Source: a virus
Taxonomy: Duplodnaviria > Caudoviricetes
Strand: one strand, 5' to 3'
IMG/VR virus record: IMGVR_UViG_3300037400_001617
Length of the DNA stretch: 64,000 nt
In this document: piece after piece, positions 2,613 to 46,379 of the stretch
Layout: each line of letters opens with the position of its first letter
Numbering within the stretch: position 1 is the first letter of the stretch
The notes under the pieces: generated by a model
Database searches by the model: none
What the model was told of the DNA's origin: nothing
The model's input: only the letters and a program-made list of their open reading frames with translations
Position numbers and translations under genes: made by a program

Positions 2613-5600
2613 TTAGTTCTTAGCTATCTGATATACTGCAGATGATATGTCCTTACCTGTAGAGTTGTTGAGTATAGAGTTGAGTGCTGTGATTGGAGCT
2701 GATGTGTTTGAATTGCCACCTGCCGCAGTGATAAGCTTAAGAAGATCAGCAGTTGTTGTATCTCCATTCTTAGCAGCAGTGTTAGCTACGATAGCAGCAA
2801 GAAGCTGAACTATTTGTTCGTTTCTAGCACTGTTGTCTGCTATAGTCTTGAGGATATCTACCACTGATGTAAGTTCCAGATTGATTGTAGATGAGGATTC
2901 AGATATACCGCCTCTACCCATTCCAGAGTTAACTGGTGTAACTACAGCATCACTACCGTTGATTTTGATATTAGTCTGAGGGACAATATTACGTCTAGCG
3001 GTATTGTGTACTGCATCTGCATAGATACCTGTCTGAATCAGCTGAGGATTTCTGCGGTTGTCTTCTGATCTCACCTTTATGAGTTTACGTCTCTGTGATT
3101 GTTGCTCTGCACCGAGAGTATTATAGATCTTCTTATTAGCAGACCTCATTCTCATAGCAAGTTCAGCTCGTCTTGATTGGCTAACTCTTTCGGGTGCCTT
3201 ACTTCTAGCCGTACCGAACTTGAATTCAGACATGCTAATCTTAGGAGCCTTTCTACCCTGACCAGTGAAGAGGTGTGATTCGTATTCCTGATACTCTACG
3301 ATATCATCGTTCGGGAAGCCCATGATATAAACTTCAGGGTTGATGAATGTACCATCGGACTTCTTGATACCGAAGTGAAGATGTCTACCTGTAGAAGAAC
3401 CAGTATGACCACCTATACCGATTGGTGAACCGATATAAACTTGAGCATTCTCCTTGATGTCTTGATGAATTGCGTTAAGATGCATGAACTGATAGATGTA
3501 TCCGTCAGTACCAGTGATTTCAACATAGTTACCAGCTCCTCCGCCATCGCTAGAACCAAGACAACCAGTGTTTGGAGCATAACCGCTTGTAACGTGTGTA
3601 ACAACACCATCACAAAGTGAGTATACTGTCCAAGCTTCATCTGAGTCGCCGCTTGCGAGAAGGTCAGTACCATTGTGTCCGTTAGGATGAACACCATCGT
3701 TATACCAACCAAATCTACACGAGCATCTAAACGTACCTCTAAACGGAGCAACGATTTCTCCATTAAAGTTAGTATTGACGTCTCCTGGAACTCCACTGCT
3801 CATACTTGCTCCATCTTCCTCTGATGCTGTGTCTCCGAAGAGAGCATCGTACAGAGGTCCGAAGAGTTTCTTAGATGCAGTGATAATATCGTTAGATATA
3901 ATGCTAAGTAATGATTTGCTACCAGATGATGCTGCTGAAGAACTGCTTGAAGTTGATGAAGAAGTCTTACTGTCAGATGATTCATCTTCCTTGATTTCTT
4001 TAGCTATCTCTTTAGCAGTACGCTTATCTTGTATTACAGTACCATATTTGTCTGGGAATCTGTTTCCCTTATTGATATGAGCACCATATACAACTTCGAA
4101 TGCTTCAGCATCGCTCTTACCGACATTCTTATTAGCTCTGAAAGATTCAGCCATCTTATACTGAATTTCGGCCTTATCGAGATCGTCTTTGATTCTCTTA
4201 TAAGCTGCGTCGTATGCTGGTCCAGTTGTATTAGCGAATGCACCTCTATGATGCTTGAGTTCATTCATTTCATATAAACGCTGCTTGTAAGCCCTAGCAG
4301 AATCTCTGTAATACGATTCATAGTCGTAACCATCTGTTCCCTTACCGAATCTACTGAGTATTCTATTAGCTTTGCTCTTACCCTTACCTGTGCTGTCTGA
4401 ATCGCTCTTACCATTGACGATGAGCTCGTACAGTATCTTAGCATTCAGTCTTCTGAGACGATCATAGATCATATTCTCAGAGTAGCTAACTCCCTCAGAG
4501 TTTCTACCATTCCAGTCACCTGAAACCTCGAATACTCTTTCGAAGTTAGCAGCTGCAGATTCAGGATCTGAGAGCTTCTTGAATTCCTCGAATGAACCTA
4601 CTGGAGTAAGTCCCTGAGATGCAAATGAAGGACTAGCATTAGCAGGATTAGACCAGTTGCCGCCATTCATGATCTCATATTTAGCGTGTTCAAGGTTTGC
4701 TTCCCAACTCCATACATCACCAGCAAAGCCATTATCTCTAGCCCAGTTTTCATGCTTTGAACCAGGAGTCCACTGCATGATACCGCCACCATAATAGATA
4801 ACACCCTTAGTAGCAATATTCCTAATAGAGTTGATACCACATTCCTGTTCCCAGTTACCAATAGCTCCACAAGCTGCCGCAGGACTAAGTCCGCAATCAC
4901 CTGTAAGCATAGCGTAGAGTTCAACCTCATCATCGGTAATAGAGATTGTGTGGGTATTTCCAACATCGTCTGTCAGAGTAAGGCTCTTGCCCTTCATCTT
5001 GGAAGCATCACCAGGATTACCTCCAACAGAACCAGATGTACTACCCTTTTTAGTGCTAGAAGTGCTGAGTATATTCCTGAGAATCTTACCATAAGGTACA
5101 AGTATAGCGTTAGCTGTATTGGAGATGAACTTCGAGAGAAGTGTTTCTTTACCCATACCTGTAGTAATCTTAACAGAACTGTTAGCCAGTGTAGAAGCAA
5201 GGTCGTAACGGTCACCACTTGTTCTCGATTCAGAATCTTCAACAATGAGTTTACCGTTTCTATCGATTCCTGTAGCTACTACGTAGTGAGACTGACTACC
5301 ATAAGGAGTGCTACCACTATTGCTAGAGTCATTACCCATCAGAACGACAGGATTACCGCTAAGCAGTGATTTCATAACACTCTTGTTGCTAGATGTAACG
5401 TTAGCAGGTATACCCTTCTTAGCAAGATAGTCTGTGAAGAATGCAGGGTATGTACCGCCATTAACTTCCTTATAGTTGTTGTTCATTGCATATCTGCCAG
5501 CTTCAGTAATATTGGCATCTTTGATACCAAACCTTCTAGCTACTGTAGCTGCAGCTGCAGGACCACAACCAGAATCAGCAAGTGTTTGTTTAGTAGAATC

Positions 5601-8600
5601 TCCCTTAGTAGAGTAAGCTGCGTTATAGTTTCTCTGATAGATATGATCTGGATCATATGTACCGTTACCATAACTGTCATCATTACCCATACCGAAGATA
5701 CTCTTGATCTTACTTATACCGCTCTTAATGGAAGAAGAAAGTTTTGCGGTGAATGATGTGTCTGACTTAGTGTCTTTTCCAGTAGATGAAGACGAAACCT
5801 TAGTTGTCTTGATATCTCCCTTATCGTTGCTCATTGAGTTGGTAACGTTTCTCATTGTATTAGATACAATAGCAAACGGTGCCTTGATTACTCTTTCCAT
5901 GAGTTCCTTCAGAGAGAACATTGAGTCTGCTATTCCTGCATTTGTATCGCCTCTTACTTCCCAGAACTTTGAGTCAAGAGGAGTAAGTACACCATCGTTA
6001 ATCTTCTTATCAGTAGCAGCATTCTTCGAGATAAGACTCCTGAATGCTTTTCCGATATTAGATACTTTTCCGAATGCACTATTGAGTCCGTTCTTTATAG
6101 AACCTTGTATTGTTCCAGTAACGTCACTAATAGAAGTTTCTCCAGTAAGCAGACCCTTTGCAGTTCCAACCATACCTTTAAATCTATCCATCATTCTGGA
6201 TGGAGCACTCTTAATTCTTTCGAGACCTCTGCGAGGAGCTCTCTTAATATACTCCATGACGTCTTCAGGATCGATATCTACACCGATTCTATCGAGTATT
6301 TCTGCTGGAATCCTATACATATTCTGATCAGCACGAGCATTGAACCAACCAGTTACAGTGTTCCATGCTTTCTTTGCGTGTTTCTTGACGCCCTTACCGA
6401 TTTTGGAACCCTTATCTACTATCCAGTCTCCAGCATCCTTGGCTTTCTTACGAACAGATTTTACTGCATCTGTATTCCAAACATCAGTAGCTGAGTCTTT
6501 AATCCAGTTTCCTATAGCCTTAGTGTCGCTCTTGGTCCAATCTATAGCCTGAGTAAACGCTTTCTTAAAGTCTCCGTTCTTGATATTGGTCAACTGTGTT
6601 TTCGCTCTACCAGGAATGCTTGTGATGCTGTTGATAAGTCCATTACCAGCTTTATCAGCATAGCTCCATAGTACACGATCCAACTTGTTCTTCTCTCTTG
6701 AGTAGTTATACTCTTCAAGAGACATATCTGTACCGTGCTCTTCGTTATATGCCTTTATGAACTCATTAGCCTCTTCCTGTCTTCTAATGTACTCATCTTC
6801 AAGACCGCATTTAGCTATAGACTCAAAGAGATGAATACATGCCATTACACACTGAGATGGGCTAAGAACCATTACCAGTCCGCTAAGAACTTTAGCAAGA
6901 CCAGCAAGCTGTCTATCTACACTGTCTATTTCATCTGGAGTAACTTGGAGAATATCTGCTGCTTGAGTTTTACCCTTTGAATAGTCTATAAGCATGATTG
7001 CTACTTCTACTACTGCTCCTACAATCTTTCCAGCTATAGTAACACTCTTCTTAGCACATCGCTCAGCGACTTCCTTAGCAGCCTTTTCAGCACCTTCTTC
7101 GATACCTTCCTCAACACCCTTGGATGTGATTTTCTTACCGAATTTAGCTGCAATGTTATCGGCTAATTCCTTGAACATTGATCCTTCTCCAAAGAACTTC
7201 TTGAATGCTTTCTTGATAAGTCCTGTAAGTTTTGAGAGAACACCTTTTTCAGCACCCTCAGTAATAGCTTTTTTAGTTCCCTTTTCGGTAGCTTCTTCAG
7301 CCATTTCTTTAAGTACTTTCTCTCCGCCTTCTTTAGTGACTTTCTCTACTGTCTCACCAGCTACTTCCTTAGCAGCCTTTTCAGCTACTTCTTTTTCCAT
7401 CTTAGTGATAGCACCCTTGGTGGTCTGTTCTATACCTTCCTCGGCTACTTCCTTGGCATTTTTCCTGAAGATATCCTTGACGTTCATACTGAGTACTTCA
7501 TCAAGGCCCTTGTCTTCTATCTTAGCAGCAAGCCTATTGATGAGTCTATTCTTCCAACCCATCTTAGCTCCCCACTTACCAGCTTTATTTGTAGCTTTGC
7601 CGACAGCTTTTCCTTCGGTCTCGACTACTCTACCAGTCAACTTGCTAAACTTGCCAGTGAGTCCAGGAATCTTTCCGAAAGTTTTTCGTGTAAATCTTCC
7701 AGATTTCTGAAGTGCTCCACCTATTAACCGAGCAGCAGAACCATGTAATCCTCTATAAGAAGAATTCTGAATGAGTGCATCTTTGATGAAAGTGCTAAGG
7801 AATCTGTTTCCTCTGCTTTGACGTTGTGCATTAGATTCATCGGCAGCAACCGCATCGATCATATTACCTTCTTCATGTGCACCCTGCCATGACGCATTAT
7901 CTTTAAGATTAATATCTTTATGAGCAAATTCTACTATGTCTTTTCGATCATAGATATTACCGTAGTCATCTTTACTGTATGCTTTAGTGTTCCCTTTGTT
8001 GTGCAGTATCTCTACGCCAGACAAATCGGTTTTCTTAGCTCCAGTAAGATCTTTTTCCTTAACGTCAGTTTTAGGTTTAGGAATATCTGAATCTTGAGTT
8101 GAACTGTAAGAACCTGCCATTTTAGCAAGATCTGATCCTATTGGTGAAACAGAAACAGAGTTGAGTGAGTTGATTTCGCCCTGTTGTGAGATAGCAAATA
8201 GTGTCTTCTGTCCAGTGAATGGGTTTGTTACGCTATGAACTGACTTAGCATTTGCCAGAAGAGCCTTACTCTGATTATCTAAGTTGGTATTGCTATTGTT
8301 ATACTCTGTCGCCATGTTCATGATGGCACGAGTATCATCTTTGTAAGCACCAGGTTTAGTTTCTGTATCACCCTTAATGACGTTAGCAGCACCCTTAGCT
8401 ACGCCCTTAGCAATTGTTCCCATGAGCGGTATAGCATTTTCAGCTACTGTTTCTACAGCTTTTCCGATAAGATTAGAAAGGTCTCCTCCAAATGATTTGA
8501 GTATAACTGGAAGTTTAGTCATGATTGCATCCGCGCCAATCTTCCAGAGATCTACGAATGAATGAAGGAATCCTGAACTTCCTTTATCTGGAGCAGAGTA

Positions 8601-11600
8601 TTCACCCTTATTAAAGATCCAGTCCTTAACTCCCTTGAAGAAGTTCTTTACCTTAGCAAGTGCGGGAGATATCATGTTAGCGAGACCGCTGAATATACCG
8701 CCTTCCCACTTTTCTACAGGATTTCCGTCTTCGTCTGTATATGAGTTCTTCTTACCCAAGAAGATAGGACCAAGCTTATCCTTAAAGAAAGGTACCAGAT
8801 GTTCTTTAGCCCATGGTTTGATAAACTGCTTATAGATTCCAGTAAGCAGAGGAGCAAATATAGCAACCTTAACTGCACCAGAGATAAGTCTCTGTATTAA
8901 GCTCTTGCCCTTCTCCTTGATATTACCTACTTTATCCTTAAGGCTTTCCTTGGTATTACCCTTGATCTCCTTAAGTTCAGCAAGCATTTTGGAGAATACA
9001 CTGTTCTTTTCGTTGTCTTGAGCATCCTTTGAACCCTTTTCAGAGTTCTTGTTGCCAGAGAAGAAGTTCTTAATTGACCTGATAGGATGGAATCCGTCAG
9101 AAACGAATGCGTTAGTGTGGATAGTATTGGTGTTGTTATTGAAGAAAGTCTCTGCTGTATCGAGGAGACTCTTAATCGACTTGATATTGAGAATCCTGTC
9201 TATCAGACCAGAGTAGTCTTTCTTTCTTTTCCGCTGCATGTCGGAAAGTTCTTTTCTGTATTTCTTATCTTCGAAGTCTGGGAAAGCTACTTTGATGTAG
9301 TCTCTAAATCCATCTATAGTGAATGGATAAACTACACCCTTATACTTAACTCCGCCGTTTCGATCTTTATACTTTCTCTTGAAAGTGTCATACATTGTCT
9401 TTATAACTTTTTCAAGAGTACTATGACGCTTTGTTATGTAGGCATCATCTGTTATTGTAAGAATCTTACCTTCCTTATCAACGTCGTCTTGTTTGTCCTT
9501 ATTACTTGCAGAGTAGTCTTGGTTTTCGCCAAGCCAGTTTGCTAAGTCGTTTGCACCAGTTCCTAATCTATTAAACAGACTACCGACTATTGGTACATGT
9601 GAAGCTACTGAACCTGCTAATCCTAAAGTTCTAGCGCCAAGTTTAGCAACTCCTATACCTCTACGGAGAAGGAAATTGTTTCTTCTTCTAGTGCCACCGA
9701 AGTCATCTGCATCTGCATTTCCTCCAGCAGAAGAATTTCTGAGATCATGTTCACTCTCCATTTCGGCTAATGCTCTTAACCTAGCTTCCTCTGCAGTTAT
9801 ACCAGGATTCTCAGCTTTTATTCTGCTGTATCTTTCTCTTACTTCTCCCTTGAGACCGCTAGCTTCAGCTAAACCACTTGTAACTTTAGCTCTGTCTCTA
9901 CGGATTCTTTCCATAAGATCTTTATCGTCAGTATAACCTACCTGAGACTTGATAGTATCAATCTCGTAGTCAGAAAGCATACTAACGTCAGCATATCCTC
10001 TAGCCGCTGCATAGTCTGCTTTAGCTTTATTGAATGCTTGATCACGCTTAGCCTTCTCTGAGTTGAACTGGTCGTTTGTATCTTTATACTGATAGTAAGC
10101 ATCCCATATAGCCTTACCGATCTTATCTGGGAGATCTGCGATCTGATCAGAGATAACTGCTACATTATTCTCGATCTTACCCTGTGGTGTAGCTATACCG
10201 TCTTCTGCTTCCTGATGATACTTTGCTTTGTATTCTGTGTGGAAGTTCTTTCTAAGCTTTTCGAGACCCTTCTTGTTCTTAAGGAACTTCTCGCTTATAC
10301 CAGCCTTCTTAAGATTCTCAAGCATCTGCTCCTTGCTAGTATTCTTGAATACTTGCTGCTGTTGCATAATGCGTTGTGTATCTTTCTTAAACTGGTCGAG
10401 AAGTTTAAGTATAGCCTCTTGATCAGACTTATCGAGAAGTGTTCTTCCGTCTTTACCCTTAGCTTTACTCTTGATAAAGCTCTGAGCAGCCTTGAAATCT
10501 GGAGCTGGATATCTGAGCATCTTAGTCAGTCTACCAGCATCAGCAGTATTCATATACTCAAGAAGTGAGTTAGAGAAGTCGTTCTTAGCCTGATTATAAC
10601 GGTCTCTGTATGGATCGCCAGTGGTCAGTGCAGCAAGCTGAGCTTCTATATCGCCTATCTGAGTAGAAGTTCTGTCTCTAGCAACGTCTGCTATATTAGT
10701 ATCAAACTCAATACTTTCTTTATTCTTGAATCCTCTACCTCTCATCATAGCATCGAAACCAAATCCGAACTTATGTTGATCTCTATACTGAAGTCTCTCT
10801 TCAGCAGATTTATTGTAAGCAGTACCTCTACGTATACGTCCTCTTTCAAGTCTATTGCCCACACTCTTAACCATATGAGCTCCAGCTATGAATGGAGATA
10901 ATGCTATGGTACCGCCAACCTTAACTGCTCCACCTATCAGTTTCTTAAGAGGATTCCTAAGGAAATCTGTTATACGAGCAGCAAGATTTTCTCCGAATAC
11001 ATTCTCGAAGTGTTTTCCTATCTTCTCAGCGAATGTATCCTTAATGTCTTGAGCAACGTTCTTAAAGGACTGAGCTATAGACTCTGCACCTTCCTTGAAA
11101 GGTTTGATTACCCAATCCTTAACCTCTCCAATGAGGCCGCCTTCACGTTTCTCTTTACCATTCTCGTCCTGAACCTTTTCACCGAATATAGCACTCATAG
11201 TGCTTTCGATAAGATCACGACCGAAGTTTGTAAGAGGATTGATGGCTTTCTTGATAGTACCTACAACGCCACCCTGTTTCTTTCCGTTAACTTCCTTACC
11301 AAAGATGAACTCTTTGAACTTGTCAGTTGAGGTTACCATACCAGCAGCACTACCAAGTAATGCGCCAGGCAGTATTCCTATAGGACTGAAGACTGCACCA
11401 GCAAGTGCACCTAATCCTATCTTAGGAAGTTTCTGTTTGAACTTTTCCTTATCTCCAAGGAGACTATCCTCACCAAAGATAAGACCGTCAAACATTCCTT
11501 CGTGTTCAGCGATTCCTGCAGCTCCTCCGAGGAGTATACCTGCAAGAGGTCCAAGCGGTGTAACAAGACTAAGTGCTCCTCCCAGGAGTGCCCCTTTACG

Positions 11601-14600
11601 CATACTTGGGAATGCCTTTTGGAGCTCTGTAGAAATAAGTCCAGTATCATCTCTTTCGCCATTCTCTCCAAGATTGCCGAACAGTGCATTAGCAAAGCCA
11701 TTAGATCTCTTAGAAAGTCCTGTAGCTATACCGAGTCCAGCACCGAGAAGTGGTACACCAAGTAATGCACCAGCAACTCCGCCGATACCAGCTTTAGCAA
11801 GATAATCTGTAGCAACGTCTACCTTTTCTCCATTGTTAAAGAAGTCAAGGATAGATTGTCTGATCGACTTTTCATCTGTATCAGTTCCTTCAGATGCGGT
11901 AGCATTAGCCATAAGCTTGTTGCGATACTTACGCTCTGCAGTATACTGTCTAGAAGCTGTAGAAGGAGATGCAGGGTTGATTACTACATCGCCCTTAGAG
12001 AGTCCATAAACTCCCATCTTAGGTACAACACCAGAACCTCCACGACCCATAACGATTTCGCCAGGGGAGAGGATAGATGTCATGTTACTCTTAGCTACAC
12101 CACCGTAAGCAGCACCGCTAAGATTTAAGTTGTCAAGAATCTGTTCTTCTTCGTCTCTGTTATCTCCTATAGGATTACCGAGAGCTTCTGCGATCTTCTT
12201 TAAAGGACCAGTTATCTTTTCGAGTGTTGGTCCTATAACCTTGGATAATGTTTCGGAGATTTTCTTTTCTCTTTCTTCCTTGGCTCTTTCTTGCTCAGTT
12301 ACTTCTGGAGAAGGCTGTGACTCTGAGTTAATGGTAGGATTGAGGAAGCTGCTATCTATAACTGTATCGAAGTTATTGTTTCTACGTATTCTAAGTCTTT
12401 GAAGCTGTCTTTCCTTTTTCTGAGCCTCAGTCTCACCATGCATATAGCGATCAGCATATTTGTCAAATACTTCTTGTCCATCTCCACCAACATCTGCTTT
12501 CATCTGCTTATAGTTGATATTGTGACTCATAATGAACTGAACGTACTTATCTGCTTCAGCATCATCTGCTCCCTTGAGAGTAAGTGCATTTCTACACTTG
12601 TCAAGGAATCTATCATCTTTGCTTCCTCTATACTGGTTCTTAAGGTTCATGATCTTACTACGTTGCTCATCATCAACCTTAATTGTGTTAGTTTTCCTCC
12701 TGAATCTGTTTTTGACTCTATTGAAGTCAGTAATAGGAAGACGATCAGTTCTTTCGTTAGTGAAATAATGAATTACAGATTCTTGTCTTGCTGCGTCATT
12801 GTAAGACATATTCACTGAGGCTGCCCACTTGATATACTCAGTACCGAATCCAGTTATTTTCTGGGTTGTGTACTTTACAGGAATAAGACTTGGGTTGAAT
12901 GATGATTTAACGATCTGTCTTATAGCCTTCTTTTTGTCTTTGTTATTGTACCATTCGCTACTAGAAGAATCAGAAGAGCCAGAAGAATCCGATGATCCTT
13001 CCTCATCATCTCTATCTCTATTTCTTCCAGTAAGGTCTCTAAGATCACGCCTGGCCATTTCAATTACATCGTGAGCGTTAGACCTGGTACGATCCCACAA
13101 GCCTCCTAATATTCCTCCAGTTCTAAAGCCTTCTCCATCAGCTTTACCAAGAATAGCCTCTTTAAGTTGGCCTAAGAAACTGTCTGGAGCAAGAAGCTTT
13201 TTGACTACATTACGTTGCCACCATCCGTTCTCGTCAGTAAAGAATTTTTCTAACGTAGTACCAATTCTGTTAGTGAGTTCATTAAATCCATCGGTGAACT
13301 TCTGTTGAAGCATTCCGAACAGACCTTCCTCTTCAACTGTTTCACCGTCTTTGTTTTTCATCTTGAAAGCATGCTTGAAGAAGATATCATGAATGAGAGC
13401 TTCGGTGCTTACCATAGCATCTGTAGCATACTGCCATGGCTTATCTGCAAGGCTCTTCATATATGCTCTAGCAAGTAAGAGCTTAGCCTTACCACCCTGA
13501 GCAGCCTTCATCTGTTCCTTAATATCTTTTTCTTTATCGTACTTGACAGATCGAGCATTTCTCTTTTCATCAGATGTGATAAGACCCCACTCTTCAAGTA
13601 CGTCGAACATGTCTTTCTCATTGGCTTTCTCTTGTTTCTGACGCTCAGCTTCATCTCTCTTGAATTCTTCAGTGATGTCATTGAGGACAGAACCGAACTG
13701 GCTTCTTACATTATCGGCATCAAGATCAACTCTGTTAGGACGTCTGAGTTTTCTATTGTAACGCTTATCGCCAGCTTTACGATACTTCTCATTTTGTTCC
13801 CATTTAGCTAACTCTTCCTGATAACGTCTTTCAAATGCCTTTTCGTCATTCGCTTTCTGTTTACTATATCGATGCTCAAGTCTCTTCCAATCAAATTTTT
13901 CTTTGGTCTCAAATGTCATGGGATCACTGGATGTGCTAGCATCATTGGGATCTCCTCCACCAAGCAATATAGAGAAAAGTCCGTTGTTTCTGATTCCAGC
14001 AAGATCAAGTTTGATATTCTTGAGATAATCAAAGATAGTATAACCATATTGGTCAGTGGTCATAGCTATAGCCTTAGCAGTAGGTGAATTCATTATAGAC
14101 TTCTGGTCATAATCACCATACTTATTCTTAAAGCGTTCGAGCCACTCGCCACTGTTCTTATTGATATCGATACCCTCCGAAGCAAAGAGAAGCTCAAGAG
14201 CAAGAGGATTGTTTCCTGTATCATTTCTCTTGTCAGCATTTCTCTTACGAGATTCGAAGACACTCTTGATTGTATTAGCAAGAACAACAGTTACATCGTC
14301 TCTATTAGTCAGTATAGGACTACCATTAGACCAATCAAGACCAGCAACTCTTTGCTGTTCTCTGTCACGTTCTGCAGTACCGTTACCATATCTCCAGTCT
14401 CTCTTCTTAGTATAACGATATTTATACTTAGTCTCTTGGAAACTCTTCTGGATGAACTGAGCTATGTTTTCATCAATGCCGTATTCTCTAGGATTACGAA
14501 GCATATTGAAGTCTGGGTTTTCATAGAAAGCGTTAGCAAATGCAGTAAGTCCCTTAATGAACTTATCTGCGTCTTGCTTATTCTTCATAATCTTATTGAA

Positions 14601-15980
14601 GTCCCCTCCAATACCCTGTTTCATATAAGAGAAGAAATCTCCCATAGCAGACATAGCCTTGTTCTTCTCATTCTTGAGAATCTCGTTATACTTGGCTCTC
14701 TTAGTAGTCCACTTACCGCTATTATAGTCGTAGATCTCCTCATCTTCTCCTGTCAATGCAGAAGCGATTTTAGCGAGGTGATGCGGCATAACTTCTGTGA
14801 TGGCTTTCTTAGTAATACCGTCAAATGGAACTGGGCCTTTTGTGTACTTGGAAGTATCGAAGTTGCCTTCTCTATCCATCTTCATACCGAAGATGGATCC
14901 CATAAGCTTATTCATTCCAGTACCATTGAGCTTCATATTGTTTAACTGACCAAAGAGAGTATAAGCAAGACCTCCAAGAACTTCGTTCAGGTTATTAGCT
15001 GAAGCTTTGAAGTTCTTATTGATATTCTTCTTAAGAAATCCCTGAGTGAGATCTCTCATTGGGTTAGCGAACATGAGAGCGAGGGTATTACCTTCGCCGA
15101 TTTTAAACGAATCCATAGAAAGACCAGTAGCTTCAGTGATAGTATCACTGATGTTCTTCTTGATAGCATTCTTATAATCCTTGAGGTTAAGCATACCATT
15201 AGCATTGACTACACTAGTGGCGGTAACTTTGTTCCCCTTCTTTTGTGTCTGACGCTGGTCTTCATACAGATTTCTCTGCATCTTGAGAAGTTCATCGAGC
15301 TGAGCTACTATGGTATTAGTATTCTTCTCGATCTTCTCATAGAACTTAGCAGTCTTTTCCCAAGTCTTCTGCTGATTCTTGATATTAGTATTAGCCGAGT
15401 CTGTAAGCAGTCTAGTGATTCTTTCGAATCCATTATTGACTGATCCCATGAGCTTCTCGTTCTGCATAAAGAGAAGAGTAGTGTTCTCTCTAGATGAATC
15501 TATCTGAGCTTTGCCAACTGTGACAATAGCATCAGTAGTCATCATAGTATTGAGCTTAGAATTCTTCTTGATAGCTGTAGCAATGATCTTGTCACCATCG
15601 CTTACATCCATTCCTTCTTTATCCCAGTCGAACTCGGCTCCATCCATATCCCAGTCGTCGCCGATACCAAGACCGCCAAACTTCTCAGTGAGTCTGGTTT
15701 CACGATCCTTAGCATACCAGTCGCCTGTTTTGATATCTTCTATGAGCGAGTTTACACCTACAGAAGCAGCTACATAAACATCGCTTTTCTGAAATCTATC
15801 CTTAACACGTTTAAACGTAGTACGATAGTCTCGTACCGAGTTGTATGCGCCCTTTAAGGATTCCTTATTCTCTTCAACGAATGATTTAGGGTTGGTAAAC
15901 ATCTCACCTGCTACATCAGCAGCAGAATAGATGACTGACTTACCAACGTTCTTAGCATATTGAGCTACCTTATTAAGCAT
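2613..15980 (-). CDS. tape measure protein with C-terminal C39-like peptidase, phage-tail lysozyme and M23 peptidase domains
   Basis: 4455 aa, helical and K/E/G-rich, with Gly-zipper hydrophobic repeats (~11200-11800). Domains: YQ...SGCGPAAAA...HYVV...IVED (C39-like, ~5170-5650); SPAAACGAIGNWEQECG...GIMQWT...AANFERVFE (lysozyme, ~4430-4920); HNGTD...H...GHTGSSTGRHLHF (M23, ~3330-3750). Confidence 0.85.
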   Translation of the reverse strand: MLNKVAQYAKNVGKSVIYSAADVAGEMFTNPKSFVEENKESLKGAYNSVRDYRTTFKRVKDRFQKSDVYVAASVGVNSLIEDIKTGDWYAKDRETRLTEKFGGLGIGDDWDMDGAEFDWDKEGMDVSDGDKIIATAIKKNSKLNTMMTTDAIVTVGKAQIDSSRENTTLLFMQNEKLMGSVNNGFERITRLLTDSANTNIKNQQKTWEKTAKFYEKIEKNTNTIVAQLDELLKMQRNLYEDQRQTQKKGNKVTATSVVNANGMLNLKDYKNAIKKNISDTITEATGLSMDSFKIGEGNTLALMFANPMRDLTQGFLKKNINKNFKASANNLNEVLGGLAYTLFGQLNNMKLNGTGMNKLMGSIFGMKMDREGNFDTSKYTKGPVPFDGITKKAITEVMPHHLAKIASALTGEDEEIYDYNSGKWTTKRAKYNEILKNEKNKAMSAMGDFFSYMKQGIGGDFNKIMKNKQDADKFIKGLTAFANAFYENPDFNMLRNPREYGIDENIAQFIQKSFQETKYKYRYTKKRDWRYGNGTAERDREQQRVAGLDWSNGSPILTNRDDVTVVLANTIKSVFESRKRNADKRNDTGNNPLALELLFASEGIDINKNSGEWLERFKNKYGDYDQKSIMNSPTAKAIAMTTDQYGYTIFDYLKNIKLDLAGIRNNGLFSILLGGGDPNDASTSSDPMTFETKEKFDWKRLEHRYSKQKANDEKAFERRYQEELAKWEQNEKYRKAGDKRYNRKLRRPNRVDLDADNVRSQFGSVLNDITEEFKRDEAERQKQEKANEKDMFDVLEEWGLITSDEKRNARSVKYDKEKDIKEQMKAAQGGKAKLLLARAYMKSLADKPWQYATDAMVSTEALIHDIFFKHAFKMKNKDGETVEEEGLFGMLQQKFTDGFNELTNRIGTTLEKFFTDENGWWQRNVVKKLLAPDSFLGQLKEAILGKADGEGFRTGGILGGLWDRTRSNAHDVIEMARRDLRDLTGRNRDRDDEEGSSDSSGSSDSSSSEWYNNKDKKKAIRQIVKSSFNPSLIPVKYTTQKITGFGTEYIKWAASVNMSYNDAARQESVIHYFTNERTDRLPITDFNRVKNRFRRKTNTIKVDDEQRSKIMNLKNQYRGSKDDRFLDKCRNALTLKGADDAEADKYVQFIMSHNINYKQMKADVGGDGQEVFDKYADRYMHGETEAQKKERQLQRLRIRRNNNFDTVIDSSFLNPTINSESQPSPEVTEQERAKEEREKKISETLSKVIGPTLEKITGPLKKIAEALGNPIGDNRDEEEQILDNLNLSGAAYGGVAKSNMTSILSPGEIVMGRGGSGVVPKMGVYGLSKGDVVINPASPSTASRQYTAERKYRNKLMANATASEGTDTDEKSIRQSILDFFNNGEKVDVATDYLAKAGIGGVAGALLGVPLLGAGLGIATGLSKRSNGFANALFGNLGENGERDDTGLISTELQKAFPSMRKGALLGGALSLVTPLGPLAGILLGGAAGIAEHEGMFDGLIFGEDSLLGDKEKFKQKLPKIGLGALAGAVFSPIGILPGALLGSAAGMVTSTDKFKEFIFGKEVNGKKQGGVVGTIKKAINPLTNFGRDLIESTMSAIFGEKVQDENGKEKREGGLIGEVKDWVIKPFKEGAESIAQSFKNVAQDIKDTFAEKIGKHFENVFGENLAARITDFLRNPLKKLIGGAVKVGGTIALSPFIAGAHMVKSVGNRLERGRIRRGTAYNKSAEERLQYRDQHKFGFGFDAMMRGRGFKNKESIEFDTNIADVARDRTSTQIGDIEAQLAALTTGDPYRDRYNQAKNDFSNSLLEYMNTADAGRLTKMLRYPAPDFKAAQSFIKSKAKGKDGRTLLDKSDQEAILKLLDQFKKDTQRIMQQQQVFKNTSKEQMLENLKKAGISEKFLKNKKGLEKLRKNFHTEYKAKYHQEAEDGIATPQGKIENNVAVISDQIADLPDKIGKAIWDAYYQYKDTNDQFNSEKAKRDQAFNKAKADYAAARGYADVSMLSDYEIDTIKSQVGYTDDKDLMERIRRDRAKVTSGLAEASGLKGEVRERYSRIKAENPGITAEEARLRALAEMESEHDLRNSSAGGNADADDFGGTRRRNNFLLRRGIGVAKLGARTLGLAGSVASHVPIVGSLFNRLGTGANDLANWLGENQDYSASNKDKQDDVDKEGKILTITDDAYITKRHSTLEKVIKTMYDTFKRKYKDRNGGVKYKGVVYPFTIDGFRDYIKVAFPDFEDKKYRKELSDMQRKRKKDYSGLIDRILNIKSIKSLLDTAETFFNNNTNTIHTNAFVSDGFHPIRSIKNFFSGNKNSEKGSKDAQDNEKNSVFSKMLAELKEIKGNTKESLKDKVGNIKEKGKSLIQRLISGAVKVAIFAPLLTGIYKQFIKPWAKEHLVPFFKDKLGPIFLGKKNSYTDEDGNPVEKWEGGIFSGLANMISPALAKVKNFFKGVKDWIFNKGEYSAPDKGSSGFLHSFVDLWKIGADAIMTKLPVILKSFGGDLSNLIGKAVETVAENAIPLMGTIAKGVAKGAANVIKGDTETKPGAYKDDTRAIMNMATEYNNSNTNLDNQSKALLANAKSVHSVTNPFTGQKTLFAISQQGEINSLNSVSVSPIGSDLAKMAGSYSSTQDSDIPKPKTDVKEKDLTGAKKTDLSGVEILHNKGNTKAYSKDDYGNIYDRKDIVEFAHKDINLKDNASWQGAHEEGNMIDAVAADESNAQRQSRGNRFLSTFIKDALIQNSSYRGLHGSAARLIGGALQKSGRFTRKTFGKIPGLTGKFSKLTGRVVETEGKAVGKATNKAGKWGAKMGWKNRLINRLAAKIEDKGLDEVLSMNVKDIFRKNAKEVAEEGIEQTTKGAITKMEKEVAEKAAKEVAGETVEKVTKEGGEKVLKEMAEEATEKGTKKAITEGAEKGVLSKLTGLIKKAFKKFFGEGSMFKELADNIAAKFGKKITSKGVEEGIEEGAEKAAKEVAERCAKKSVTIAGKIVGAVVEVAIMLIDYSKGKTQAADILQVTPDEIDSVDRQLAGLAKVLSGLVMVLSPSQCVMACIHLFESIAKCGLEDEYIRRQEEANEFIKAYNEEHGTDMSLEEYNYSREKNKLDRVLWSYADKAGNGLINSITSIPGRAKTQLTNIKNGDFKKAFTQAIDWTKSDTKAIGNWIKDSATDVWNTDAVKSVRKKAKDAGDWIVDKGSKIGKGVKKHAKKAWNTVTGWFNARADQNMYRIPAEILDRIGVDIDPEDVMEYIKRAPRRGLERIKSAPSRMMDRFKGMVGTAKGLLTGETSISDVTGTIQGSIKNGLNSAFGKVSNIGKAFRSLISKNAATDKKINDGVLTPLDSKFWEVRGDTNAGIADSMFSLKELMERVIKAPFAIVSNTMRNVTNSMSNDKGDIKTTKVSSSSTGKDTKSDTSFTAKLSSSIKSGISKIKSIFGMGNDDSYGNGTYDPDHIYQRNYNAAYSTKGDSTKQTLADSGCGPAAAATVARRFGIKDANITEAGRYAMNNNYKEVNGGTYPAFFTDYLAKKGIPANVTSSNKSVMKSLLSGNPVVLMGNDSSNSGSTPYGSQSHYVVATGIDRNGKLIVEDSESRTSGDRYDLASTLANSSVKITTGMGKETLLSKFISNTANAILVPYGKILRNILSTSSTKKGSTSGSVGGNPGDASKMKGKSLTLTDDVGNTHTISITDDEVELYAMLTGDCGLSPAAACGAIGNWEQECGINSIRNIATKGVIYYGGGIMQWTPGSKHENWARDNGFAGDVWSWEANLEHAKYEIMNGGNWSNPANASPSFASQGLTPVGSFEEFKKLSDPESAAANFERVFEVSGDWNGRNSEGVSYSENMIYDRLRRLNAKILYELIVNGKSDSDSTGKGKSKANRILSRFGKGTDGYDYESYYRDSARAYKQRLYEMNELKHHRGAFANTTGPAYDAAYKRIKDDLDKAEIQYKMAESFRANKNVGKSDAEAFEVVYGAHINKGNRFPDKYGTVIQDKRTAKEIAKEIKEDESSDSKTSSSTSSSSSAASSGSKSLLSIISNDIITASKKLFGPLYDALFGDTASEEDGASMSSGVPGDVNTNFNGEIVAPFRGTFRCSCRFGWYNDGVHPNGHNGTDLLASGDSDEAWTVYSLCDGVVTHVTSGYAPNTGCLGSSDGGGAGNYVEITGTDGYIYQFMHLNAIHQDIKENAQVYIGSPIGIGGHTGSSTGRHLHFGIKKSDGTFINPEVYIMGFPNDDIVEYQEYESHLFTGQGRKAPKISMSEFKFGTARSKAPERVSQSRRAELAMRMRSANKKIYNTLGAEQQSQRRKLIKVRSEDNRRNPQLIQTGIYADAVHNTARRNIVPQTNIKINGSDAVVTPVNSGMGRGGISESSSTINLELTSVVDILKTIADNSARNEQIVQLLAAIVANTAAKNGDTTTADLLKLITAAGGNSNTSAPITALNSILNNSTGKDISSAVYQIAKN

Positions 15981-16060
15981 AAGGCTCTCCTCCTTTCTAT
16001 TAGATTACTAAGATGTTCCTCCCTCCAAATTGGTACGATTGTATACTATTAGAGGGCAAT

Positions 16061-16116
16061 CAACCATTAAATAATCAAGTAATCGTACGTATTTGGGGCG
16101 ATTACGAACAAGGAGG
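16061..16116 (+). promoter_or_regulatory. conserved polymerase leader, copy 1 (promoter + hairpin + SD)
   Basis: CAACCATTAAATAATCAA-GTAATCGT-ACGTATTTGGG-GCGATTAC-GAACA-AGGAGG; near-identical to 43547-43603. Confidence 0.85.
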
Positions 16117-16122
16117 AAAACT

Positions 16123-18279
16123 ATGATACCAATATCAGACAGAGGTCTTACAATCTATAAGACCGAAATGAAAGAAGCGTTGAGACTGTCTTTCCCAAGA
16201 CTGTTCGATACGGACATTGACGCAGCTATAGACTATTCTATAGCAAAAAGATTTTCAGACACTCCAGTAAAACTGGATAACAACTACACACACAACACCC
16301 AAAACACAACACTTTACAACGTGTTGAATTATATCATAGAACGAGAACCGATAGTAACTGTATCTGGTGTTCTCTTCAAGAAGCATGGCACTTGCCCTAA
16401 CCCATACGTAGATCTCATTCAGGAATTCCTGACTAAGAGAGCTGAGTATAAGGGAATGATGCTTAAGTATCCTAAGGGATCAGAGATGTATGAGAAGTAC
16501 AATCTTCTTCAGCTTTCAGAGAAGGTATCTGCAAATGCTATCTATGGAGCTAGTGGTAATCATACATCTATCTTCTACAACGTTAACGTTGCATCATCTA
16601 TCACAATGCAGGGTCAGAACTGTATTGCTACAGCACTTCTGTTGTTTGAAGCTACACTCAACAATAACGTTAAGTTCGGCTCACTCAATGAGATTATACA
16701 GTTCATCAATAACGTTCGTCGTGAGAGACCTACTCGTAAGTATAATGACTACGATGTCATTGATATGCCAGTATCGGCATACGATGTATTCTGTCAGCTT
16801 ATCTGTACATGTGGTTTCTACTACAGACCTTCAGAGAAGGATCTGATGATTGTATGGGATATCATCAATCAGCTTGACCAGGAAGACCTTAATCGTATCT
16901 TCTTTAAGAATAACCTCTTCTACTTCTTCGACAATAAGTATGTTATGGATAAGGTCGTATACTTCCTTAGTCTGCTTCCGATACACTTCATGGATCCGAA
17001 CAAGACTCCTAATGCTAAGGACATCTATGATGCTCTTAAGGATACTGATAACCCGATGACAGAGGAAGAAGCTAGTCATCTTGCAGATCAGATCAAAGCG
17101 GCTCTTGATGAAGTATATGAACTCGTTAAGGAGTATGTATACTATGGTCATCAGTACATGGATCGTCTCGACAGAGCAGAGAACATGGTTCGTTCTGTAT
17201 CTATTCTTACCGATACCGACTCTTGTTTCATCAGCTTTGACGGATGGTATCGTTATCTTCTTGATAAGACTTACTCTATCCCGATGAGGATTAAGGAGAT
17301 CGAGCAGGACAATGAGGGTAAGGTATGGAGAGCAGACGTTCATTCTTATGACTATGACTTCTTTAAAGATGAAGTTATTGATCTTCAGCAGACTCTTAAT
17401 GATGATAACGCTGTAGGACCTACAGCAGGATATCGTTGTTCACTTATCAACGTACTTGCTCATATCATGGGTCGTCTGTCGATTGACTATATGACAAGAT
17501 ACTCTACAAACTCTAATGCTATCAAGACTGCTGACGGTAAGATACGTAAGTCATTCTTCATTCTCAAGAACGAGTTCCAGCTTAAGCAGGCACTGGTTAC
17601 AATGGTAAAGAAGAACTACTGTTGTTATCAGGAGCGTCAGGAGAATGCATTCATTCCTCTTGAAGAAGCTCTTGATGTTAAGGGTATGCCTATCCGTAAG
17701 GTTGGAATACCTGAGAAGACTGCGAGAAGAATTGAAGAAATCCTATGGTACTTCGTTCTCAATGCAGAACAGATCTCGCAGATAGATATCATCAAACAAT
17801 TGGCTGCACTTGAGAAGATGATATACGAATCTCTCATGGCAGGTGATAAGAGTTACTTCAAGCCTCAGCGTATCAAAGCATCGTCTGGTTATGCAGATCC
17901 TATGGGTCAGTATACTATCAAAGCCGCTGTAGCATACAATCTCCTTAGGAGAGATAACGAACCAATCATCGACCTTACTACACGTAACACTGTTCTGATC
18001 ATCAAGACAGATATGACTGAGAAGAATATCGATCAGATCAAGGATACTTTCCCTGATGTGTATGAGAGAGCGGTAAAGATGCTCGCTACAAAGGACTTCA
18101 AGGGCGAGTGTGGTAATATAGCTATACTTTCCGAAGAAGAAGTACCAGAGTGGGTTAAACCATTCATCAACTATACTCAGGTTATCAATGACAATATAGC
18201 TACGTTCCCAGTAGAAGCTCTCGGCATTGACAGAAGAGAGAAGAAGAGTGTAAACTTCACTAACATTGTATCTCTGTAA
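16123..18279 (+). CDS. family B DNA polymerase, C-terminal subunit (motifs B and C)
   Basis: QLSEKVSANAIYG (motif B), SITMQGQ, LTDTDS (motif C), KKNY, VKGM. No exonuclease motifs or motif A. Start moved to ATG 16123 after AGGAGG. Confidence 0.85.
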   Translation: MIPISDRGLTIYKTEMKEALRLSFPRLFDTDIDAAIDYSIAKRFSDTPVKLDNNYTHNTQNTTLYNVLNYIIEREPIVTVSGVLFKKHGTCPNPYVDLIQEFLTKRAEYKGMMLKYPKGSEMYEKYNLLQLSEKVSANAIYGASGNHTSIFYNVNVASSITMQGQNCIATALLLFEATLNNNVKFGSLNEIIQFINNVRRERPTRKYNDYDVIDMPVSAYDVFCQLICTCGFYYRPSEKDLMIVWDIINQLDQEDLNRIFFKNNLFYFFDNKYVMDKVVYFLSLLPIHFMDPNKTPNAKDIYDALKDTDNPMTEEEASHLADQIKAALDEVYELVKEYVYYGHQYMDRLDRAENMVRSVSILTDTDSCFISFDGWYRYLLDKTYSIPMRIKEIEQDNEGKVWRADVHSYDYDFFKDEVIDLQQTLNDDNAVGPTAGYRCSLINVLAHIMGRLSIDYMTRYSTNSNAIKTADGKIRKSFFILKNEFQLKQALVTMVKKNYCCYQERQENAFIPLEEALDVKGMPIRKVGIPEKTARRIEEILWYFVLNAEQISQIDIIKQLAALEKMIYESLMAGDKSYFKPQRIKASSGYADPMGQYTIKAAVAYNLLRRDNEPIIDLTTRNTVLIIKTDMTEKNIDQIKDTFPDVYERAVKMLATKDFKGECGNIAILSEEEVPEWVKPFINYTQVINDNIATFPVEALGIDRREKKSVNFTNIVSL

Positions 18280-18284
18280 GGCTG

Positions 18285-18319
18285 TGGGTAGGGGTTTCCC
18301 TACCCATTTCCTTCTTTTT
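18285..18319 (+). terminator. terminator after the polymerase C-subunit gene
   Basis: TGGGTAGGG-GTTT-CCCTACCCA followed by TTTCCTTCTTTTT. Confidence 0.7.
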
Positions 18320-18852: not shown

Positions 18853-18875
18853 GAGGGTAGGCATTGCCTACCCTC
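18853..18875. terminator. hairpin GAGGGTAGGC-ATT-GCCTACCCTC (identical copy at 26997-27019)
   Basis: Perfect 10-bp stem just after a stop codon. Confidence 0.65.
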
Positions 18876-18892
18876 TCAATTATGTCTTTCGT

Positions 18893-18903
18893 TGTATATT
18901 ATA
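18893..18903 (+). promoter_or_regulatory. putative early (virion RNAP) promoter TGTATATTATA
   Basis: Same motif at 22721-22731 (+), 53610-53620 (+) and 42324-42334 (-); variant TTGTATACTATT at 16039-16050 and 34196-34207. Resembles the phiKZ early motif TATATTAC. Confidence 0.6.
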
Positions 18904-18962
18904 TTGGCGTCAGTAGAGGTTTACCTCTACTGAAACTATCCAATACTAAGGAGGTAAAATAT

Positions 18963-21107
18963 ATGACACGAACCGATTTATATGGAGTATGGTCATGCCT
19001 ACTCGAAAGTGAAACAAACGTTGAGATCGTAGCCGAAGATCTCGACAATGCTAAACTTAACGACTACAGAATAGGTTTGCAGAATCTGATTACAGATAAT
19101 GTCGAACAGCCGTTAATGCAGACCAAAGTAACAGTCGTATTCAGAGACTATAAGAAGAGTGTGAGACTCACACTCCCAGATCTTATGGTAAATTTATGTA
19201 TGTGGGGATTTGTCGTTGAAGCAGGACACACCCTTAAGCCTTGGCATCTGTTCTTCTGTAAGAAGGGAATCGATAAGAAGGCTATAGCGAACTACATCAA
19301 CAAGTACGCCATCATACCTAACAGAGATACGATGGAACCTAAGAGACTTAATGAGATGATCTATACAAATCATAAGACTCTTAAGTTTGCTGAGAAGTTT
19401 GCTCTGTACTACAACAACTCAATCAATCATGAGGATTTCATTCTCATGGCAAACGCTTGTCCTGAGTTTGATGAGCTTATGCATAAGGACTATTCAAACC
19501 TTCCTGCTGATCAGATGAACGCCGAGGCAATGAAGGATTGTAATAGAATCATCGAGCTTATCCTTGAGAGCAAGAAGTGGATTGGAAGGGACCATTGTCT
19601 TGCAGACGCATTCAGAGCTAAGGTCGGTGTAAAGCCAAAGCAGTTTAGAGAGATGATCTCTAATATAGGCATAAAGCCTAATGGTGAGGGAGGAATCTTC
19701 CCCCACTCCATAGACGCTTCTTACATGAGAGGTGGTCTTAACCGTTTTGAATGGATGGTTGCTGAAGCAGGTATTGGACGTCAGGCTCAGATCTTATCCA
19801 AGCAGAACACAGCAGACTCAGGTGCTTTCGCCAGAGTACTTGGTCTGAATCAGATCGATACATGCCTCTATACAGATGAGTTCGGTAATGTTGATCCTAA
19901 CTATGATTGTCATACTAGAAACTTTGTTGAGGTGACACTCACTGAGGAGAACATCGAGATGTATCAAGACAGATACTTCAGATTCCATCCAGATGGAATG
20001 GAGTATAATACTGGATGCTTAGATACCCTTAGACACGATCTTGTTGGTCAGACAATCTATTTAAGATCTCCTATTACTTGTGCAAGTGCTGCTCGAGGAA
20101 AGGGTATCTGTAAGAGATGCTACGGTAATCTCTTCATGGGCAATAAAATCGTAAACATCGGAAAGATTGCAGCCGAGCTGATATCACAAACCCTCACTCA
20201 GCTTATGTTATCAGCTAAGCATCTTCTTGAGGCTAAGATTAGTAAGATTGAATGGAGCATTCCTCAGGAGCAGTTCGATCAGTTCTTCTCATTCGATGAT
20301 GAGGATATCTATATCAACTCAGAGTTCATGGGAGGTAAGAAGTGGTTACTCCATATCGACAGAGACAATGTAGATACTGAAACAGTTGTGTCTATGAGCG
20401 ATAGCGATAGTGAAGGAGACGACTTCGATATTCTCAGAGACTACATCACTCAGTTCGATATCATCACTCCAGATGGAGAAGTTATAGAGGTACATGGTAC
20501 AAATAATGAGTGTCTGTATCTTCAGGATGAGCTTTGCAAGCTTATCAACACTAAGCAGTACGAGGATGAAACTGACATCTTCATTCCTATCACAGATCTT
20601 CAGCAGTCCAGAATACCTATTTTTGGAGTGGGTATTTATAATGATGATCTTGGTAAGAATCTGAAGGAAGTTATGTCTATTATCAATCTCAAGACAAAGA
20701 CATGTAACTATACACGCCATGAGATTCTTAGAGACTTCATCAACAAACTCATAGATTGTGGTATGGGCGGTATCCGTTCTGTCCATGCAGAGATCATAAT
20801 CATGAATCAGATCAGAGATGTCGATGATGTACTTCTCAAACCTGATTGGGACTATCCAGATCAGAAGTATAGAATACTCACTCTTCGTCAGGCTTTAGAG
20901 TACAACCCGAGCATTCAGGTTACAATGCAGTATGAGAATCTTGCTCGTACTCTGTATAAGCCGATATCTTTCAGAAAGACAGCTCCAAGTAAACTTGATA
21001 TGTTTGCACATGTTCAGCCTCAGGTTTACATGGCAGAGGATGTAGAAAGCGAAGTTGTTACTAAGCCTCTCTTTGAAGTTATTGATAAGAGAGAAGATAA
21101 AAAATGA
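18963..21107 (+). CDS. phage multisubunit RNA polymerase beta' subunit, C-terminal part (probably non-virion RNAP)
   Basis: KQNTADSG, RSPITC...GICKRCYG (Zn site), IGKIAA...TQLMLSAKH (trigger-loop region) and HAEIII match RpoC C-terminal regions. No NADFDGD. Start at ATG 18963 after AAGGAGGT. Confidence 0.85.
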   Translation: MTRTDLYGVWSCLLESETNVEIVAEDLDNAKLNDYRIGLQNLITDNVEQPLMQTKVTVVFRDYKKSVRLTLPDLMVNLCMWGFVVEAGHTLKPWHLFFCKKGIDKKAIANYINKYAIIPNRDTMEPKRLNEMIYTNHKTLKFAEKFALYYNNSINHEDFILMANACPEFDELMHKDYSNLPADQMNAEAMKDCNRIIELILESKKWIGRDHCLADAFRAKVGVKPKQFREMISNIGIKPNGEGGIFPHSIDASYMRGGLNRFEWMVAEAGIGRQAQILSKQNTADSGAFARVLGLNQIDTCLYTDEFGNVDPNYDCHTRNFVEVTLTEENIEMYQDRYFRFHPDGMEYNTGCLDTLRHDLVGQTIYLRSPITCASAARGKGICKRCYGNLFMGNKIVNIGKIAAELISQTLTQLMLSAKHLLEAKISKIEWSIPQEQFDQFFSFDDEDIYINSEFMGGKKWLLHIDRDNVDTETVVSMSDSDSEGDDFDILRDYITQFDIITPDGEVIEVHGTNNECLYLQDELCKLINTKQYEDETDIFIPITDLQQSRIPIFGVGIYNDDLGKNLKEVMSIINLKTKTCNYTRHEILRDFINKLIDCGMGGIRSVHAEIIIMNQIRDVDDVLLKPDWDYPDQKYRILTLRQALEYNPSIQVTMQYENLARTLYKPISFRKTAPSKLDMFAHVQPQVYMAEDVESEVVTKPLFEVIDKREDKK

Positions 21108-43323: not shown

Positions 43324-43384
43324 GAATCGTACCTCCTTCGGTTAATTTTTATAAGAGTGTTAGCTGTATCAGAACATAATGGTA

Positions 43385-43525
43385 AGGAAGCATTAAAACG
43401 GGTGGTGTTTCCTTTCATGGTGTCATAGTCCTCCTAACTAATGAATCGGCTATTCATTAGCGACAACAACTGACCTCTCTGGAATGCTGGTAGGGATCTT
43501 CCCTACCAGTCGTTCTTGCGTCTTT
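43385..43525 (+). ncRNA. candidate small RNA with anti-SD motifs
   Basis: Late-type promoter at 43373-43385, no + strand ORF with an RBS, internal 9-bp hairpin at 43438-43460, terminal 10-bp hairpin at 43487-43509. Confidence 0.45.
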
Positions 43526-43546
43526 TGTAGACTATAAAACCCTCTC

Positions 43547-43603: not shown

Positions 43604-43610
43604 AATCACA

Positions 43611-46288: not shown

Positions 46289-46379
46289 AAGTTATGAGAG
46301 ATTAGTCCCAGAGAGGTCTACTCTCTGGGCTATTCTTTGTTACTCGAAACATTATAGTAACTTGAAAGGAGGAGTTATA

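Follow-up and report, generated by a model that had tools for sequence, protein, structure and literature searches.

How does a phage that divides its DNA polymerase between two genes lying 27 kb apart keep the two products in step? Such split polymerases are characteristic of jumbo phages of the PhiKZ/AR9 type. In PhiKZ the homologous N and C halves assemble into a stable 1:1 complex (PMC13648687), and this makes a need for balanced synthesis plausible. The question is raised here by 64,000 nucleotides (nt) of viral DNA (IMG/VR record IMGVR_UViG_3300037400_001617; Duplodnaviria, Caudoviricetes), referred to below as the window, which are part of a 76.6-kb IMG/VR contig with an estimated completeness of 34%. 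In the window both polymerase halves are preceded by near-identical leaders consisting of a promoter, a predicted hairpin and a Shine–Dalgarno (SD) sequence. A first reading made without database searches (the sequence-only reading) had noticed the repeat and proposed a shared RNA operator, plausibly bound by the assembled polymerase, that keeps the two subunits in equal amounts. Our analysis indicates that the shared hairpin leader probably does coordinate the two halves, because the hairpin is unique to these two genes in the genome and recurs in related phages.

That the genes behind the leaders belong together was borne out by Pfam matches, which identify them as the halves of one split, divergent family B polymerase (PolB). 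The N half also matches positions 19–87 of PF00136, weakly and at a score (22.5 bits) under the Pfam cut-off of 23. Homologues of 718 and 665 amino acids (aa) that are full length confirm the ATG starts of both genes. The closest cultured relatives of both halves are those of the Bacillus phages AR9 and PBS1 (27–31% identity), and the halves differ by 2–5% at the protein level from those of two sister genomes of 231,846 and 229,448 bp, both rated complete, one of which (G001) serves below for genome-wide counts. A nucleotide search of a phage collection gave no match. The two genes and the parts of their leaders are as follows.

16123–18279 (plus strand): C half of PolB, 718 aa, with part of the palm, the fingers and the thumb (PF20286, divDNApol, 9e-29; PF00136, 1e-12; full-length 718-aa homologue).
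43611–45608 (plus strand): N half of PolB, 665 aa, with the N-terminal domain, the exonuclease and the start of the palm (PF03104, 5e-9; 665-aa homologues).
16062–16073 (plus strand): AR9-type late promoter motif AACC-ATTAAA-TA (non-virion RNA polymerase) of the C half, predicted start A 16073.
43548–43559 (plus strand): AR9-type late promoter motif AACC-ATTAAA-TA of the N half, predicted start A 43559.
16079–16105 (plus strand): hairpin copy 1, formed by GTAATCGT, the 11-nt loop ACGTATTTGGG and GCGATTAC, at +7 to +33 of the predicted mRNA; −9.4 kcal/mol; 38.5 bits (E = 1e-5) with covariance model R1.
43566–43592 (plus strand): hairpin copy 2, formed by GTAATCGT, ACGTGTTTGGG and ACGATTAC; −9.4 kcal/mol; 38.9 bits with model R1.
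16111–16116 (plus strand): SD sequence AGGAGG of the C half, 5 nt past the hairpin and 6 nt ahead of the ATG.
43598–43603 (plus strand): SD sequence AGGAGG of the N half, 5 nt past the hairpin and 7 nt ahead of the ATG.

The repeat itself, at 16061–16129 and 43547–43617, held up in every particular. Global alignment of the two copies gives 63 identical columns out of 71, and the core of the leader (16061–16118 and 43547–43605) is identical at 54 of 59, while the 100 nt flanking the leaders on either side show 60/108 and 53/106 identities, which is the background level of about 50%. The 18-mer CAACCATTAAATAATCAA occurs at exactly two sites with up to three mismatches (0.08 are expected from shuffles) and the 27-mer hairpin GTAATCGT-ACGTRTTTGGG-RCGATTAC also at exactly two, with none expected. 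As first described, the sole difference between the two stems replaces a U-G by a U-A pair and so keeps the pairing, 10 of the 11 loop positions are identical, the gap of 5 nt from hairpin to SD is the same in both leaders, and both genes begin with ATGATAC.

Which part of this leader is peculiar to the polymerase genes? Its first 18 bases fit a late promoter of the AR9 type, used by the phage's own RNA polymerase. In AR9 the late promoters read AACA-(6N)-T-A/G, the last base being the transcript start, and the early promoters consist of AT-rich boxes followed by 6N and a G at +1 (PMC5312081). The idea that the promoter half of the leader is also polymerase-specific had to be given up, as it proved to be a general AR9-type phage promoter. 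The late motif stands about 25 nt ahead of many genes on the window's own contig; in G001 it is found within 130 nt of 59 of the 214 called genes, and 52 genes have it 18–80 nt upstream. Leader lengths in G001 cluster at 20–34 nt (35 occurrences of the motif against 5 of a reversed-motif control), and in 36 short-leader promoters AAC, TA and the following A are invariant. The fourth base, which differs from AR9 in being C in both polymerase copies, is C in 6 of these 36. Because every base lies within the range tolerated in the general promoters, 16062–16073 and 43548–43559 are taken to be ordinary phage-polymerase promoters, whose starts and use in this phage are predicted from sequence. A separate 'middle' promoter subclass (AACNATTAAATA) was considered but is not supported: it has only three pre-gene sites in G001, two of them at the polymerase halves, and its bases fall within the range of the general matrix. 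Host-type sigma-70 promoters were likewise set aside as not the relevant class, since the promoter scan matched fewer of them than in shuffled sequences. The observation that no other gene in the window carries the leader thus applies to the hairpin, which is limited to the polymerase halves, and not to the promoter part, which precedes many genes.

The leaders of the C and N halves are 50 and 52 nt long, and their surplus over a typical leader is the 27-nt hairpin; leaders in G001 are typically 18–34 nt and unstructured (36/52). When a 25-mer was searched with three mismatches, exactly two sites were found in each complete genome, each of them before a polymerase half, and there is no further copy of the hairpin in the 76.6-kb contig or in the two complete sister genomes of about 230 kb. 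A covariance model built from 15 leaders also finds only two sites in the window and only two in the whole of G001, the next match having E = 6.8. Pattern search and covariance model therefore agree in restricting the hairpin to the two polymerase-half genes. The 36-nt hairpin core has a folding z-score of −2.5 to −3.0. An Rfam scan of the window gave no family match. A role of the hairpin in intrinsic termination or attenuation was rejected, as the sense strand lacks a T run.

A search of relatives with a covariance model, the check that the sequence-only reading had suggested, found the hairpin kept before the polymerase halves with compensatory changes in its stem. From viral contigs, 80 C-half loci were compared, together with the N-half locus of the same record in 26 cases; Logan, ENA and JGI contigs supplied intermediate relatives, and metagenomes 80 N-half loci. 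Many of the related contigs come from rumen and gut metagenomes, and among relatives at 60–82% identity few leader pairs were matched within one genome. In relatives of about 45% identity and above, the N half is as a rule preceded by a promoter and a 42–56-nt leader with a hairpin ending 0–9 nt before the SD, an arrangement that is also common for the C half; in more remote relatives a short and plain leader follows the promoter. The leader exceeds 34 nt in 38 of 49 cases for the N half and in 24 of 38 for the C half, compared with 16 of 52 for all G001 promoters. The stems vary by lineage with pairing kept: GTAATCG/CGATTAC in the window, TAATCATA/TATGATTA in L130, TAATTC/GAATTA in L131 and L190, TAATTGTACC/GGTGCAATTA in L169, and ACGT/ACGT, ACGC/GCGT or ACGT/GCGT in a clade at 55% identity. 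In close relatives the outer pair runs through the series G-C, G-U, A-U. In alignment A4, 81.8% of the cells pair as against 24–42% with a slid partner, and 5 of the 11 pairs change on both sides, giving a covariation score that 3 of 500 shuffles reach; the invariance of the four outer pairs (TAAT/ATTA) in this alignment is partly due to the choice of sequences. Over about 750 kb of relatives' loci the clear matches of the covariance model lie just upstream of a polymerase half, with the single exception of G032 (discussed below). The evidence thus supports a polymerase-specific cis element, set in a standard leader and apparently long kept before both halves.

Two further observations concern the leaders of the clade at about 55% identity (G004, G005, G028 and G029; loci L101–L104, L022, L023, L028 and L065). 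GTA(A/C)GCTGA is present in both leaders, 8–12 nt before the SD, and the innermost pair of the N-half hairpin forms the series U-A, U-G, C-G (ACGT..ACGT, ACGT..GCGT, ACGC..GCGT).

The surroundings of the two leaders contain additional promoters, terminator-like hairpins and one co-transcribed open reading frame (ORF).

16039–16056 (plus strand): early-type promoter TTGTATACTAT-N6-G, preceding the C-half copy of the shared leader and resembling AR9 early promoters, with TATACTAT at 16042–16049.
18284–18307 (plus strand): terminator-like hairpin with T tail that closes the C-half unit (terminator scan; 10 pairs, 6 of them G-C, and a T-rich tail).
43487–43509 (plus strand): terminator-like hairpin that would shield the N-half leader from transcription arriving from upstream, identified by reading the sequence and not listed by the terminator scan.
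43525–43535 (plus strand): degenerate early-promoter box TTGTAGACTAT of the N half, seen in alignment A1, with one mismatch in the TATA core and absent from the TATAYYAT matches.
45605–46288 (plus strand): 227-aa ORF with an ATGA overlap with the N-half stop, in the N-half transcription unit (ORF list; no family match).
46307–46329 (plus strand): terminator-like hairpin closing the N-half unit (terminator scan).

Terminator-like hairpins bound both loci, and each half therefore appears to head its own insulated transcription unit. The early-promoter consensus RTTRTATAYTAT-N5/6-G is present ahead of more than 20 intergenic sites in G001. The AR9 homologues of the two halves, gp152 and gp132, both fall into the 'continuously expressed' class, whose members have early and late promoters in tandem, and the C half here is like them in having an early-type box and a late motif. 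The polymerase leaders of AR9 differ in that no hairpin is evident in them by eye. Those upstream of g152 (L230:1120–1160) and g132 (L231:665–706) are, again by eye, alike just before the SD (AACTAAA..TTGAT.AATA.TTG.GAGGAG). On the minus strand at 16006–16017 a late promoter (AACATCTTAGTA) drives the divergent gene for a protein of 4455 aa (2613–15980), and with it the divergent 142-nt spacer holds three promoters; the homologue of this gene in L129 has C39 peptidase, lysozyme and M23 domains. Directly downstream of the C-half locus, 18864–21107 encodes an RNA polymerase beta subunit of the PhiKZ/AR9 type (phrog_3015, 9e-44).

A 213–234-aa ORF follows the N half in every relative fetched. Pfam and PHROG searches gave no match for the 227-aa ORF and nothing useful for the small ORFs behind each half; its product could be an additional polymerase subunit or an accessory protein. 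Upstream of the N-half leader, at 43373–43512, a late-type promoter (AACATAATGGTA) points into about 130 nt devoid of ORFs, which end at the terminator-like hairpin. Pairing of this unit (43384–43512) with the polymerase leaders was considered and rejected, since the duplex energies (−41.6 and −42.3, against a best of −50.3 and a median of −32.4 for other genes) are not clearly exceptional and the method does not discriminate. In G003 (L019, L020; IMGVR_UViG_3300035497_000279, 225343–228946) the C half is found in two open frames of 501 and 244 aa about 1.5 kb apart, so that the polymerase there would consist of three pieces, unless an intron or other insertion interrupts the gene.

How might such a leader coordinate the two genes? 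We propose that each half, as the first gene of its own unit, is expressed from a common cassette with which both units open. The first part of the cassette, the AR9-type promoter (AACM-N6-TA) of the non-virion RNA polymerase, would give both genes the same timing, with the early-type promoter just upstream as an addition for the C half. The second part, the 27-nt stem–loop, is inserted into a leader that is otherwise of the usual type (about 25 nt); it occupies +7 to +33 of the predicted mRNA, and its end is 5 nt from the SD. It would be a control point shared by both mRNAs, acting on translation initiation and perhaps on stability of the 5′ end, by which the amounts of the halves would be matched. 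The likeliest route would be a single trans-acting protein bound to the helix beside the ribosome site, the polymerase or its N half being the leading candidate. That the element acts in the mRNA, all modes taken together, we consider fairly likely. For our main reading, a protein-bound translational operator common to both mRNAs that matches the output of the halves, we would estimate a probability of roughly 0.4.

Two known systems invite comparison. In T4 and RB69, gp43 binds a leader hairpin near the ribosome site and represses its own translation (PMC3014915). This parallel, drawn by the sequence-only reading, is apt as regards position and logic, the hairpin lying 5 nt before the SD, but does not extend to the loop determinants, and there is no sequence relation. 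The T4/RB69 operators have -UAAC-/-UAAA- loops in hairpins of 16–18 nt (PMC3014915), whereas the element described here has an 8-bp stem and an 11-nt loop, ACGURUUUGGG, which is invertible in relatives; moreover the polymerase is of the divergent PhiKZ/AR9 clade and encoded by two genes with a copy of the hairpin at each. The element may function like the gp43 operator, but its different loop determinants place it outside that family. The PeSL cassettes of T4-type phages are similar in being short repeated units of promoter and stem–loop before genes, and are characterized by sigma-70-type promoters, terminating stem–loops, many copies in hyperplastic regions and module shuffling (PMC2839356). 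The hairpin here is followed by GAACAAGG and not by a T run, and neither of two terminator scans lists it. As there is no sigma-70 promoter and no terminator function, and there are two copies only, both at core polymerase genes, it is not a PeSL cassette.

Several results weigh against a shared translational operator. The transcript 5′ ends are predicted only, and public RNA libraries (four runs, available as assembled contigs only and coming from relatives about 93% identical) are uninformative on starts, strand and level; two of their contigs cross-map onto 16061–16107 from the N-half locus of a sister phage and merely re-show the repeat. The hairpin is only moderately stable and the whole 75-nt leader folds no better than shuffled sequence. 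About nine other G001 promoters also lead into hairpins, of unrelated sequences, so that a leader hairpin as such is not unique to the polymerase genes. Near-identical copies are confined to the window, G001 and G002, with weaker similarity in G006, where both copies have CC(C)TATTTAGGG, and in most lineages the two leaders of one genome differ in sequence. N-half and C-half leaders are more alike within genomes than between clades (permutation p = 0.0006, or 0.004 without the window's lineage), a similarity that could also reflect genome-specific composition or gene conversion. In G032 (L116:882–1501) a 179-aa ORF that overlaps the N-half start comes after the promoter and hairpin; the hairpin there stays by the promoter, and hence is not always beside the polymerase SD. 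The 179-aa ORF may be an inserted mobile gene.

The orientation of the loop is a further difficulty. In the C-half leaders of L129 (750–778) and L149 (754–782), at 75–77% identity, the loop is the exact reverse complement, CCCAAATACGT, on a stem that is unchanged except for the outermost base in L149. The C-half leader of L130 (748–782; 74% identity) has an inverted loop with changes, and the loop is again inverted in N-half leaders of the G026/L179 lineage (G026 leader L107:3335–3364, minus strand). The two orientations are both maintained, in separate lineages and for N and C halves alike. Small inversions of hairpin loops, which these resemble, are known from chloroplast spacers. For the phages concerned it cannot be the case that a single protein reads the same loop sequence in the two mRNAs. 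The helix could instead be what is recognized, because a perfect palindromic stem is unchanged by inversion; recognition of double-stranded DNA could also fit. One sample yielded both the L129 locus (C half) and L136 (N half, with the loop in direct orientation), and their identities fit one clade, so that one phage may carry both orientations.

Attempts to tell an RNA from a DNA element were of little help. Comparison of sense with antisense folding gave p = 0.007 with the SD region and p = 0.14 without it, and as the significance is lost with the SD it is not evidence for RNA. An unbiased stem finder gave 26 G-T against 35 A-C mismatches, swamped by spurious AT-rich stems, and alignment A4 has 6 G-U against 2 A-C cells, few of them independent. 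Neither the wobble-pair nor the strand comparison distinguishes a hairpin in RNA from a palindrome in DNA, and this too tells against the operator as an RNA element.

The alternative that survives best also acts in the mRNA. A passive hairpin with no dedicated protein would protect the 5′ end from host nucleases or shield the ribosome site, and equal output would follow from an equal promoter and initiation region. Such a role, which we regard as possible though unlikely, would suit a hairpin that begins about 6 nt from the predicted 5′ end, accompanies the promoter and not the polymerase SD in G032, tolerates inversion of its loop and variation of its stem so long as pairing is kept, and has counterparts of unrelated sequence in the 5′ leaders of other G001 genes; in the window's lineage the identity spans the promoter to codon 3, as matched initiation rates would need. 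What a purely structural role would not call for is the retention of loop segments (ACGTRTTTGGG or, for the lineage of G006, CCTATTTAGGG) where the flanks no longer align, and most strongly expressed late genes are without any hairpin. In comparison with the 5′ stabiliser stem–loops of Gram-positive bacteria, the −9.4 kcal/mol hairpin would follow 6 unpaired nt, counted from the predicted start. To our knowledge six unpaired 5′ bases exceed those of strong Bacillus 5′ stabilisers, which also counts against a passive hairpin.

Alternatively the conserved arms might be a DNA operator, TAATYG-N13/14-CRATTA, centred about 20 bp past the start, at which a dimeric phage protein would control transcription of both genes. 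The half-site cores TAAT/ATTA recur in many lineages at a fairly constant spacing of 13–14 bp; a palindromic site would be unaltered by loop inversion, which would explain both orientations; in L170, L199 and G006 the 5′ ATAATTG box is retained although no 3′ arm complements it; the hairpin position of G005 is occupied by a palindrome with no spacer, ATCATATGAT; and, as noted, the wobble-pair and strand tests do not favour RNA. Nevertheless compensated pairing extends between the half-sites (L183, L169, L190, L131), for which a dimer on double-stranded DNA would have no need, the spacing reaches 19 bp in L130, and part of the invariance of TAAT/ATTA in A4 comes from the choice of sequences. 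Pfam and PHROG searches found no DNA-binding gene linked to either locus, and we know of no repressor of jumbo-phage non-virion RNA polymerases. A DNA operator is judged rather unlikely. Lastly, it is improbable that the near-identity is the mere trace of a recent copying or gene conversion with no role for the hairpin: the identity is sharply bounded at 16061 and 16129 with weaker similarity further upstream, the degenerate early-promoter box before the N-half copy resembles a decaying copied segment and the near-identity is seen only in the lineage of the window, G001 and G002, but a hairpin with compensatory changes stands before both halves in lineages as distant as about 45% protein identity, the window and two sister genomes have kept the pair despite 2–5% protein divergence, and direct repeats 27 kb apart carry a deletion risk and should decay if neutral.

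Returning to the protein-bound translational operator, the protein that might bind it can be considered. The polymerase itself is a candidate, though a doubtful one: the N+C polymerase or one of its halves, when off DNA, would bind the helix in both mRNAs, and a single feedback loop would balance the halves. For the relatives with reverse-complementary loops (L129/L136), a remote variant would have the two mRNAs joined by loop–loop pairing and translated next to each other.

In the papers on split DNA polymerases of jumbo phages that were checked there is no mention of a shared leader or operator, and the paper on the PhiKZ polymerase (PMC13648687) does not treat regulation; nor did we find any treatment of how two distant polymerase genes are balanced. 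Judged from sequence comparison, the element would belong to the known kinds of promoter-leader hairpin or translational operator, in a form that occurs twice, once at each gene of a split enzyme. The hairpin is a compact candidate control site, conserved and confined to the two polymerase genes, each of which has it. The AR9 promoter grammar (AACA-N6-TA, with tandem early and late promoters at replication genes) is extended to a large clade of uncultured 230-kb rumen and gut phages, which aids the annotation of their transcription units. If the polymerase does bind both leaders, this would be autoregulation of the gp43 kind at the level of a heterodimer, and would have arisen independently in the AR9-like jumbo phages of gut and rumen.

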